NCBI RefSeq assembly: GCF_003334255.1
Contig: NZ_QOWU01000005.1
DNA length: 64,000 nucleotides
DNA from: Escherichia coli
GTDB lineage: Bacteria; Pseudomonadota; Gammaproteobacteria; Enterobacterales; Enterobacteriaceae
Reading direction: 5' to 3' (one strand)
The stretch's first letter is position 1, and each line of letters opens with the position of its first letter. Of the stretch, positions 45,533-48,642 are shown one piece after another. The translations under genes were made by a program, and so were the position numbers. Under the pieces are notes generated by a model. It had not been told where the DNA came from and did no database searches. It saw only the letters and a program-made list of their open reading frames with translations.

Positions 45533-46591
45533 GTGCGTGCCGATAAGTCATTAAGCCCGTTTGAAATCCGGGTATACCGCCATTACCGCATAGTGCATGG
45601 TACTCGGGTCGCGCTGGCATTCCTGCTCACTTTTCTCATTATCCGCCTGTTTACTATCCCGGAAAGCACCTGGCCGCTGGTCACCATGGTGGTGATTATG
45701 GGGCCAATCTCGTTCTGGGGTAACGTTGTCCCTCGTGCCTTCGAACGTATTGGCGGTACGGTGTTGGGTTCGATTTTAGGTCTTATCGCTCTGCAACTGG
45801 AGTTAATTTCGTTACCGCTGATGTTAGTCTGGTGCGCGGCGGCGATGTTTCTTTGCGGTTGGCTGGCGCTGGGCAAGAAACCGTATCAAGGATTATTGAT
45901 TGGGGTGACGCTGGCAATTGTTGTTGGTTCCCCGACAGGTGAAATTGATACGGCGTTATGGCGAAGCGGCGATGTGATCCTCGGCTCTTTACTGGCAATG
46001 TTGTTTACCGGTATCTGGCCACAACGGGCGTTCATCCACTGGCGCATTCAACTGGCGAAAAGTCTGACCGAGTATAATCGGGTCTATCAATCTGCATTCT
46101 CACCGAACTTACTCGAACGCCCACGTCTGGAAAGCCATCTACAAAAACTCCTGACCGATGCCGTGAAAATGCGTGGGCTGATTGCGCCCGCCAGCAAAGA
46201 AACCCGTATTCCCAAATCGATATATGAAGGTATCCAGACCATTAACCGCAATCTGGTTTGTATGCTGGAGTTGCAAATCAATGCGTACTGGGCCACGCGC
46301 CCCAGCCATTTCGTGTTATTGAACGCGCAAAAACTTCGTGATACCCAGCACATGATGCAGCAAATACTGCTGAGCCTTGTTCATGCGCTGTACGAAGGTA
46401 ATCCGCAGCCGGTTTTTGCCAATACGGAAAAATTGAACGATGCTGTGGAAGAGCTGCGTCAGTTGCTCGATAACCACCATGACCTGAAGGTTGTGGAAAC
46501 ACCAATCTATGGTTATGTGTGGCTGAACATGGAAACGGCACATCAGCTTGAGTTGCTATCGAATCTGATTTGCCGGGCCTTGCGCAAATAA
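45533..46591 (+). CDS. yeeA: Inner membrane protein YeeA (FUSC-like putative efflux/transporter)
   Basis: 352-aa ORF with N-terminal TM segments and a C-terminal helical domain. Confidence 0.85.
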   Translation: MRADKSLSPFEIRVYRHYRIVHGTRVALAFLLTFLIIRLFTIPESTWPLVTMVVIMGPISFWGNVVPRAFERIGGTVLGSILGLIALQLELISLPLMLVWCAAAMFLCGWLALGKKPYQGLLIGVTLAIVVGSPTGEIDTALWRSGDVILGSLLAMLFTGIWPQRAFIHWRIQLAKSLTEYNRVYQSAFSPNLLERPRLESHLQKLLTDAVKMRGLIAPASKETRIPKSIYEGIQTINRNLVCMLELQINAYWATRPSHFVLLNAQKLRDTQHMMQQILLSLVHALYEGNPQPVFANTEKLNDAVEELRQLLDNHHDLKVVETPIYGYVWLNMETAHQLELLSNLICRALRK

Positions 46592-46762
46592 TTCCTGAAC
46601 TTCAGAATCATCTTGCTGCTGCTTCGATTCAGCAAGGATAAAGGGTATGATAGTGAAAAGGGATAAAAGCATTGTCATCTGCGGCAGCTATGAGTAATGT
46701 TGGCCCTAACGAATAGCGGTTGCTTAAACGAATCCGACTCTCACATTATCAGGGGTATAAAA

Positions 46763-47092
46763 ATGGAAACTACCAAGCCTTCATTCCAGGACGTACTGGA
46801 ATTTGTTCGTCTGTTCCGTCGTAAGAACAAACTGCAACGTGAAATTCAGGACGTTGAGAAAAAGATCCGTGACAACCAGAAGCGCGTCCTGTTGCTGGAC
46901 AACCTGAGCGATTACATCAAGCCAGGGATGAGCGTTGAAGCAATCCAGGGCATCATCGCCAGCATGAAAGGTGACTATGAAGATCGCGTTGACGATTACA
47001 TCATCAAAAATGCCGAGCTCTCCAAAGAACGCCGCGATATCTCCAAAAAGCTGAAAGCTATGGGCGAAATGAAAAACGGCGAAGCGAAGTAA
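46763..47092 (+). CDS. yeeX: UPF0265 protein YeeX
   Basis: ORF 46697..47092; start placed at [30 protein letters not shown] (109 aa). Confidence 0.88.
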
Positions 47093-47192
47093 TTCCCGTT
47101 TTATTCAATGAGGGTTGCCCGGCAACCCTCATTGCTCATTGATTCTTATCTGTGTATCACCGTCATCATTCTCATCTGAGAACCAATCGAAA

Positions 47193-47375
47193 TTAACAAC
47201 AGCCTTCTTCTGTATGCAGCAAGGCAAAAAGTTCTGTAACTCCATTGTTATTAACTGCACTGGTTACTAACACGTTGTGCGCTCCAGCTTCCCGTAACCA
47301 ACTTTTCACCAAAGATATTTGTTCCATGCTGGCTAAATCTGCTTTGGTTACTACTCCAATGACCGGGTGATTCAT
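47193..47375 (-). pseudogene. C-terminal fragment of an EutP/PduV-family small GTPase (yoeF-like relic)
   Basis: Only the last ~60 aa (MNHPVIGVVTKADLASMEQISLVKSWLREAGAHNVLVTSAVNNNGVTELFALLHTEE) resemble EutP/PduV; the upstream part of the called ORF runs antisense over the IS66 fragment. Confidence 0.5.
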
Positions 47376-47442
47376 GGCCCGGTAGGGCGTTTTTACCTCT
47401 AATTCCTGCTTCAGCGCTGAGATTCCTGCTTGTTGCCGGAAA

Positions 47443-47575
47443 AGCAGGCACCTGCCGTCTGAACGGTATCGATCCGGAAGCGTATCTGCGCCATATTCTG
47501 AGCATACTGCCGGAATGGCCCTCCAACCGTGTTGACGAACTCCTGCCATGGAACGTAGTTCTCACCAATAAATAA
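47443..47575 (+). pseudogene. 3' fragment of an IS66-family transposase gene
   Basis: Translation AGTCRLNGIDPEAYLRHILSILPEWPSNRVDELLPWNVVLTNK* matches the conserved C-terminus of IS66 TnpC-type transposases; no upstream transposase body is present. Confidence 0.6.
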
Positions 47576-47989
47576 GCGTCAATACGGTGCTCCGTTGACG
47601 CTTACTTTAATCCGTTTTCTGAGCTTAGATTTTTCTGTTCCTACCCAGACCGTGGATTTGGAATTCATTTTTTGTCAGGTCAATGCTAATCGTTAAAACG
47701 GCCATAACGCACCTCCACTGGAAGGTTTATCAGTAATATCCTACCGTTGCTTCATGGTCGGGGCGTCCATTCCATTATTATCGGTTTTCCTTTCTGTTTA
47801 TAAATGAAAACGCCAGCTGTATTCAGGCTGGCGTCAGGGGAAATGAAGCCTGTTGAGTGAGATTCACCGGTTCTGGTGCAGAAGCTGCAGATGGCGCAGG
47901 GTAAGGACATCTTCTCTTGCCTGCTTAATACAGGACAACAGTGCTGTTTCTGTGGTTAATGGCACTATACCCTGCATCACTGCATTGTC

Positions 47990-48184
47990 TTACAGCAACT
48001 GGTGAGGGCTGGCATAAGTTGCCGGTGTTTCGGTAGAGTCACGGTCATCCACCACGCGGAGTGAATAACCGTTTTCAGCGGCCTTATTAATCAGTTCAGT
48101 GATATTAACACCATCAATGTCAACGACAATGTGCCCCATATCCAGCGCCTGTACGTTAACGCTGTCGGCTTCCAGTGTCATCAT
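47990..48184 (-). CDS. yeeW: Small prophage protein, YeeW-like
   Basis: 64-aa ORF immediately downstream of cbtA, overlapping its stop by 4 bp (ATGA). Confidence 0.55.
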   Translation of the reverse strand: MMTLEADSVNVQALDMGHIVVDIDGVNITELINKAAENGYSLRVVDDRDSTETPATYASPHQLL

Positions 48185-48554
48185 TTCGCCTCCGGATACT
48201 TACCCAGGGTAATGTTATTTACCGTTCTGTAATTGTCGCGGGTCATCAGGCCGGTCGCCCTGCGAGCCCGGAGGATATCGATGCTGTTTATTAACTGAGA
48301 GCGGGTACAGGCGCTGAATCCCGGCTGGTCGGTAGCACCAGCGCGTATTTTTCCACGAGAAAGTTCACCGCATCACACAGTGAAATGCCTGCCTCAATAT
48401 GCTGCTCAATCACACGTTCATCGGCAAAAGGTGTGTCATTCAGTGTGAGGCCATAGTGCTGGTCCAGCAGTCGGGACAGCAGTATCTGCCAGATTTCAAC
48501 AGGAGACGGGCGAGAACTGGCCGCCTGCCCGGGTAATACAGGTAATGTTTTCAT
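48181..48554 (-). pseudogene. cbtA: CbtA (YeeV) cytoskeleton-binding toxin gene, disrupted by a -1 frameshift
   Basis: ORF 48291..48554 gives the CbtA N-terminus ([73 protein letters not shown]); the C-terminus ([50 protein letters not shown]) continues in another frame from about 48300. Confidence 0.75.
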
Positions 48555-48642
48555 ACTGAAGATTTTCCTGATATGCAGATATAAAAATGGAAAAGTGGCG
48601 TGGTGAAAACACCAGGCCGTAGCAGAAGGCTATTCTGGAGAG

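Follow-up and report, generated by a model that had tools for sequence, protein, structure and literature searches.

The window, that is the whole stretch of 64,000 nucleotides of Escherichia coli DNA that was analysed, contains a series of gene pieces flanked by the intact core gene tmaR (yeeX; 46763-47092, + strand, according to the ORF list and the RefSeq annotation of identical or collinear records). Read along the + strand, the order is tmaR, a hairpin, a piece of pduV (pduV', - strand), a piece of a DUF4942-family gene (DUF4942', - strand), the tail of an IS66 element (+ strand) and the 5' end of an IS110-family element (- strand), beyond which come a DUF957 fragment, yeeW, cbtA and then the remaining island. 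Positions 47093-47900 are 100% identical to many complete E. coli genomes and are covered over at least 80% of their length in 3178 of the 5426 genomes searched. The comparison with the yoeD/yoeF region of K-12 called for by the earlier note established that the window is collinear with K-12 MG1655, which aligns to positions 47000-48300 without a gap and with 99.7% identity. From this alignment the two genes are yoeF (b4538, a CDS in K-12), at 47193-47549 (- strand), and yoeD (b4642, a pseudogene in K-12), at 47447-47575 (+ strand), while the end of the K-12 feature 'cryptic prophage CP4-44' (2078748) falls on window position 47376. The K-12 record thus already sets the CP4-44 boundary at the joint between pduV' and the island, and delimits yoeD exactly as the coding tail of the IS66 element. 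An Rfam scan of positions 46600-48400 (E<=1) gave no match.

Between the convergent tmaR and pduV genes lies a palindromic hairpin (47106-47134), found by folding and as a self inverted match, with a 13-bp stem and a free energy of -21 kcal/mol (z -5.0). The earlier note had taken it for the yeeX terminator. The hairpin is indeed strong, but because it is not followed by a T-run it was not called by the consensus terminator scan, which called none here. It is conserved in strains ECOR29, XB2 and TK3888 (records L003, L004 and L005) and is equally present in pdu-positive genomes.

Positions 47193-47375 (- strand) encode codons 88-147 and the stop codon of a GTPase of the PduV/EutP family, an assignment drawn from Pfam, from the identity with ECOR29 and from a single-copy census. 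The Pfam profile PF10662 (PduV-EutP) matches residues 57-112 of the 118-aa ORF with an E-value of 7.6e-13, over model positions 86-142 of 143 only, and the NCBIfam profile TIGR02528 (EutP) matches with an E-value of 8e-11 and 42 bits against a cutoff of 138, set for the full-length protein. The segment is therefore a fragment of an EutP/PduV family member, and the C-terminal part of about 60 residues announced in the earlier note amounts to 60 codons and a stop. The intact 147-aa PduV of ECOR29 (WP_001369832.1) is identical to the stub at 55 of 60 residues (92%, residues 87-146), and the DNA homology between ECOR29 and the window ends exactly at 47375, which corresponds to Met88. The P-loop GPSQCGKT and the DTPGE motif sit in PduV residues 1-87, which are absent from the window; the stub accordingly has neither the GTP-binding P-loop (GxxxxGKT) nor the switch motifs. 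It derives from pduV and not from eutP, since the collinear full-length gene of ECOR29 follows pduU at the end of pduA-V, an intact operon that converges on tmaR and of which the full EutP/PduV protein is the last product. The ECOR29 chromosome continues past pduA with pduF, pocR, a cobalamin riboswitch, a cbi remnant and cobUST.

Some particularities of the ECOR29 region are worth recording. No pduW- or pduX-type gene stands between pduV, the last gene of the operon, and tmaR. The pocR gene and the cobalamin riboswitch are kept while the cbi operon is down to a 'hypothetical' remnant of about 440 bp before cobUST (L009 17509-18472). The ECOR29 yeeA gene is interrupted by the IS110-like element IS621 (L003 1062-3399), whereas yeeA of the window (45533-46591) is intact.

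To count alleles, short junction probes were run against 5426 complete E. coli genomes with a coverage threshold of 80%. A 208-nt probe spanning 47193-47400 matched 5411 of them, always in chromosomal DNA and with a median of one site per genome, and no second E. coli locus matched the GTPase piece at the DNA level. The stub is found with or without the island, strain XB2 being an example without. Because it stands beside tmaR in these 5411 genomes whether the island is there or not, and because it ends the intact pdu operon in ECOR29, the stub is chromosomal flank, the 3' end of pduV still at its original site beside tmaR, and not cargo of the island.

The earlier note had described the IS66 and GTPase fragments as overlapping. 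The homologies proper cover 47193-47375 and 47447-47605 and do not touch: the overlap is an artefact of the yoeF ORF, which alone crosses the IS tail in antisense. The 71-bp spacer between them (47376-47446), unique to this locus, comprises about 24 codons (approximately codons 40-63, - strand) from the N-terminal part of a DUF4942-family gene, the terminal gene of the island. This identification comes from the island module carried by plasmid pRHB40-C01_2, with which positions 47368-47444 share 76% identity (L012 2998-3077). In strain TK3888 and the genomes that share its allele the spacer runs on for several hundred bases past the 71 bp, and this longer version (L006 142-329) is again 76% identical in DNA to the plasmid module (L012 3001-3197, E-value of 3e-35). 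It corresponds to the first 65 codons of the DUF4942-family gene, with 59% identity at the protein level (E-value of 1e-18). The plasmid gene is the last of a complete yeeS-yeeT-yeeU-cbtA-...-DUF957-DUF4942 module, and Pfam places a DUF4942 domain in its product, over residues 87-275.

Other origins were considered for the spacer. The pdu/pocR/cbi region of ECOR29 gave no blastn or tblastx match to it, and a DUF4942 origin accounts for it instead. It is not the left end of an internally deleted IS66 element either, as the left ends of ISCro1 and ISEc23 do not match it and it is specific to the locus. Finally, it is not the right end of the IS110 element, which maps to L006 330-1700, while the spacer aligns collinearly with DUF4942 codons.

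At the joint between the two pieces, the intact pduV reads ...GGGCGATTCAT|TGACG, the DUF4942 gene ...CTGTTTCAT|GGCCCAG and the window ...GGGTGATTCAT|GGCCCGG. This three-way comparison, together with the K-12 mapping, locates a 5-bp microhomology, TTCAT (47371-47375), at the pduV'/DUF4942' joint and places the true edge of the island at 47375|47376, where the CP4-44 feature of K-12 also ends. The two genes are fused in frame at a shared Met codon. The earlier note had recognised a decayed island boundary here, and the segment does form the edge of a CP4-44-type island; the island nevertheless starts at 47376 and leaves the GTPase stub, chromosomal pduV, outside it.

The joint has also received an insertion in TK3888, in which a complete ISCro1 (IS66 family; tnpA, tnpB, tnpC; L005 4186-6883) sits on it at the equivalent of window positions 47369-47376 and is flanked by the 8-bp duplication GATTCATG. 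This is an IS66-family insertion independent of the ISEc23-type tail described below and within 80 bp of it, which may reflect coincidence or a local target preference.

From 47447 to 47605 (+ strand) the window carries the final 159 bp of an ISEc23-type IS66 element 2541 bp long, namely its positions 2383-2541. Its first part (47447-47575) encodes TnpC codons 496-537, that is 42 codons as compared with the approximately 44 of the earlier note, followed by the stop codon at 47573-47575. The Pfam profile PF13817 (DDE_Tnp_IS66_C) matches the translation of 47381-47578 from residue 23, which is position 47447, over model positions 4-39 of 39 with an E-value of 1.7e-15, so that the C-terminal element of IS66 transposases is present. 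At the DNA level, the sequence from 47447 onward is 94-99% identical to the 3' ends of ISEc23-family elements, with copies on plasmids, and its position within the element was set against a complete 2541-bp ISEc23-family copy bounded by 8-bp target duplications. The right inverted repeat is intact and ends ...GTTGACGCTTAC / GACGCTTAC at 47605, the terminal repeat expected of the family being GTAAGCG.... The DDE catalytic domain, tnpA, tnpB and the left inverted repeat are all missing, and the sequence upstream is derived from DUF4942; the absence of an upstream body noted earlier for both relics holds, Pfam covering only the C-terminal part of each model. The joint at 47446|47447 has no microhomology to either parent.

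Adjoining the right end of the IS is its 8-bp target site, TTTAATCC (47606-47613), identical to TK3888 L006 1530-1537. It occurs there once and uninterrupted, in the context ...GGGAACG TTTAATCC GTTTTC..., as compared with ...CGCTTAC TTTAATCC GTTTTC... in the window. Complete ISEc23 copies elsewhere show 8-bp target duplications; here the left end, where the second copy of the site would have stood, is deleted.

The segment 47606-47776 (- strand) is a degenerate 5' end of an IS110-family element, made of about 71 bp of its left end and the first 26-33 codons of its transposase, as defined by the TK3888 alignment and by a peptide match. Window positions 47606-48995 align with TK3888 L006 1530-2933 at 91.7% identity, and TK3888 has there an IS110-family transposase gene (L006 601-1629, - strand) that is frameshifted and annotated as a pseudogene by RefSeq. 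The peptide MAVLTISIDLTKNEFQIHG of the window is 44% identical to the N-terminus of a Photobacterium IS110 transposase (E-value of 7e-7). Thus, both the N-terminal motif and a full-length homologue point to the IS110 family, although the window retains no more than the first ~33 codons of the gene. The limits of the element, L006 330-1700, fall exactly at the DUF4942 start codon in a single comparison, that with the plasmid module. This remnant and the DUF4942 piece (47376-47446) had escaped the earlier note, which had correctly listed the GTPase and IS66 pieces.

TK3888 represents an allele found in about 583-633 other genomes, in which pduV' is followed by 63 codons of DUF4942', IS110 and DUF957'. 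Compared with this allele, the window lacks 1312 bp (L006 218-1529), replaced by the 159-bp IS tail.

Further into the island, the DUF957-family fragment lies at 47864-47956 (- strand; RefSeq annotation of an identical record, L001 3772-3864, with a shift of 44092), and positions 47777-47946 match the DUF957 region of the pRHB40-C01_2 module. The annotation of identical or near-identical records and the complete plasmid module together give the order typical of CP4-44 islands: antirestriction gene, yeeS, yeeT, cbeA, cbtA, yeeW, DUF957 and DUF4942, the last two surviving in the window as fragments only. The cbtA gene (48181-48554, - strand), which encodes the toxin of the CbtA/CbeA pair, has a 1-nt deletion relative to K-12 near 48335, after codon 73 (GTGCGT to GTGC-T), leaving a truncated frame of 87 aa; in near-identical genomes RefSeq labels the gene 'frameshifted'. 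By contrast cbeA (48643-49011), which encodes the antitoxin, is intact. At the opposite end of the island, which lies beyond the window, the close relative FORC_069 carries a truncated IS66-family transposase gene (N-terminus missing, frameshifted) and an IS4 fragment (L011 39758-40104), both adjoining the cbi remnant and cobU.

The yoeF ORF (47193-47549, - strand) is 118 aa long, as in K-12 (ORF list, translation and annotation of b4538), and reads through three of these pieces: 34 residues antisense to the IS66 tail, 24 residues from DUF4942 and 60 residues, 88-147, from PduV. No product of this region is expected to act as a GTPase or as a transposase. The reading of yoeF as a genuine coding gene, through the 118-aa K-12 product or the 60-aa product that PGAP assigns to the EutP/PduV family, could draw on a frame that is open in the window, K-12, FORC_069 and TK3888, on the in-frame join of DUF4942' to pduV' and on the CDS annotated by RefSeq. 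We consider it very unlikely. The ORF is a patchwork of unrelated pieces and lacks the P-loop and the DTPGE motif, and its N-terminus depends on the allele (MSDMT... in the pre-deletion form, MAGVR... in the window). The XB2 allele has an internal stop. Upstream of yoeF on the - strand no promoter-like site was found in 47550-47776, the sole match lying at 47804-47777. Compared with the intact gene, pduV' carries 2 synonymous and 6 non-synonymous nucleotide changes, a small sample whose ratio is what neutral decay, free of selection, would predict. In 99.7% of the genomes the 3' stub of pduV persists, and there is only a slight chance that the chimeric yoeF yields a small protein with a new role, or that the stub and the hairpin serve as 3' end or terminator context for tmaR.

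Placing both fragments among the debris of the island's own edge, with the GTPase piece as island cargo or borne by a mobile element, would agree with their distance of less than 400 bp from that edge, with the K-12 yoeF ORF straddling the prophage boundary and with a survey of the K-12 y-ome that puts yoeF in the CP4-44 cluster (PMC11551758). Such an origin is nonetheless highly improbable for a piece that is single-copy and always beside tmaR in 5411 of 5426 genomes, that is present in the island-less XB2 and as the last gene of intact pdu operons, and that the K-12 record itself leaves out of CP4-44 by ending the feature at window position 47376. As for the IS66 tail, adjacent deletions are commonly generated by IS elements, and this one keeps its right end and its target site whole, as a composite or transposase-mediated adjacent deletion would have it. 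A transposase-mediated deletion, however, starts at the IS terminus and leaves the IS whole, whereas the actual breakpoint lies inside tnpC (IS position 2382|2383), with the left end, tnpA and tnpB gone. A breakpoint internal to the IS contradicts an IS-generated deletion, which we regard as extremely unlikely, in favour of a random one. We thus retain the reading that the region is very probably a pile-up of four relics, none of them functional, where the core chromosome meets a CP4-44-type island, with the same layout as yoeF/yoeD in K-12.

The alleles found in the 5426 genomes indicate how this arrangement may have arisen. The pduV'/DUF4942' joint of the window type was detected with a 140-nt probe in 4171 genomes, including K-12, O157:H7, O111 and Nissle 1917, and in 849 (about 16%) pduV runs uninterrupted through the breakpoint. 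Up to 532 genomes, a count that includes two-piece matches, have pduV' next to cobU as in XB2; these categories overlap slightly, 4171 + 849 + up to 532 being more than 5411. In XB2 (L004 4171-4177), a 17.7-kb deletion has brought pduV up against the cbi remnant that precedes cobU, with an overlap of about 7 bp and no island, and homology to the window ends at 47366, 9 bp further into pduV than the breakpoint of the window. The XB2 type is thus a second, independent loss of pdu, and pduV has been cut by independent deletions at least twice, at points 9 bp apart. In FORC_069 the island takes up all the space between pduV' and the cbi remnant, which lies upstream of cobU. No genome with a complete pduV and an adjacent complete DUF4942 gene was found.

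The earlier note had proposed at least two past insertion or deletion events; at least four are implied. Their order and direction, deduced by parsimony from the directly observed alleles, breakpoints and counts, would be as follows. The ancestral chromosome, surviving in about 16% of genomes, would have had tmaR facing an intact pduA-V operon, then pduF, pocR, the cbi remnant and cobUST. Illegitimate recombination at TTCAT would have joined DUF4942 codon ~64 to pduV codon 88 and removed the remaining pdu genes, so that the island would now occupy the pdu-pocR slot up to the cbi remnant. Before or after this fusion, an IS110-family element would have inserted at the DUF4942 start codon. An ISEc23-like IS66 element would then have entered the IS110 transposase gene at TTTAATCC, and one deletion of about 3.7 kb without microhomology (47446|47447) would have taken 2382 bp of the IS together with 1312 bp of adjacent DNA, leaving the tail. 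A synthetic junction probe for the intermediate, in which the IS110 gene would hold a complete ISEc23-type element at TTTAATCC, matched 0 of the 5426 genomes, and the last two steps are therefore deduced only from what the deletion left and from the empty site.

For annotation, this means that yoeF should be described as the pseudogene stub of pduV with island debris joined to it, neither a CP4-44 gene nor a hypothetical protein, and that the 60-aa CDS named 'EutP/PduV family microcompartment system protein' by PGAP is a fragment. In our literature search, yoeF was met solely in gene lists and no paper discussing a pduV origin was found: the y-ome survey groups it with the CP4-44 y-genes (PMC11551758), and comparisons of O-antigen-flanking regions list it between a hypothetical gene and cobU (PMC5359238). 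The locus also marks cleanly the presence/absence polymorphism that E. coli shows for the pdu operon, with possible use in typing or in reconstructing the loss of the pdu/cob region. Beyond annotation hygiene its importance is small.

Each part of the arrangement can be set beside a known counterpart. With ISEc23 (IS66 family, 2541 bp; tnpA-tnpB-tnpC) the window has in common the C-terminal transposase element and the right inverted repeat, whereas the left repeat, tnpA, tnpB and the DDE core of tnpC, 94% of the element, are deleted, and the remnant therefore cannot transpose. The TK3888-type allele has the same pduV'/DUF4942' joint and downstream island genes but a whole, though frameshifted, IS110, 63 DUF4942 codons and no IS66 tail, TK3888 itself having in addition the complete ISCro1 at the joint. 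In pdu-positive E. coli (ECOR29, NRG 857C), pduV has the same position and orientation beside tmaR as the stub, but residues 1-87 and the entire upstream operon, missing in the window, are present. Collinearity with CP4-44 of K-12 ends at 49821: from there to 64000 the window has DUF932, patatin-like phospholipase, RdcB-family and dynamin-family genes, as in FORC_069, and the flu/yeeR arrangement of K-12 is absent from its island, which runs past the window end. Within the relic region, no structural difference separates the window from yoeF/yoeD at the right end of CP4-44. The locus is thus already known from these annotated K-12 genes and is a case of ordinary genome decay, to which the DUF4942 piece, the IS110 target and the allele census add detail on a known relic and not a new kind of feature.
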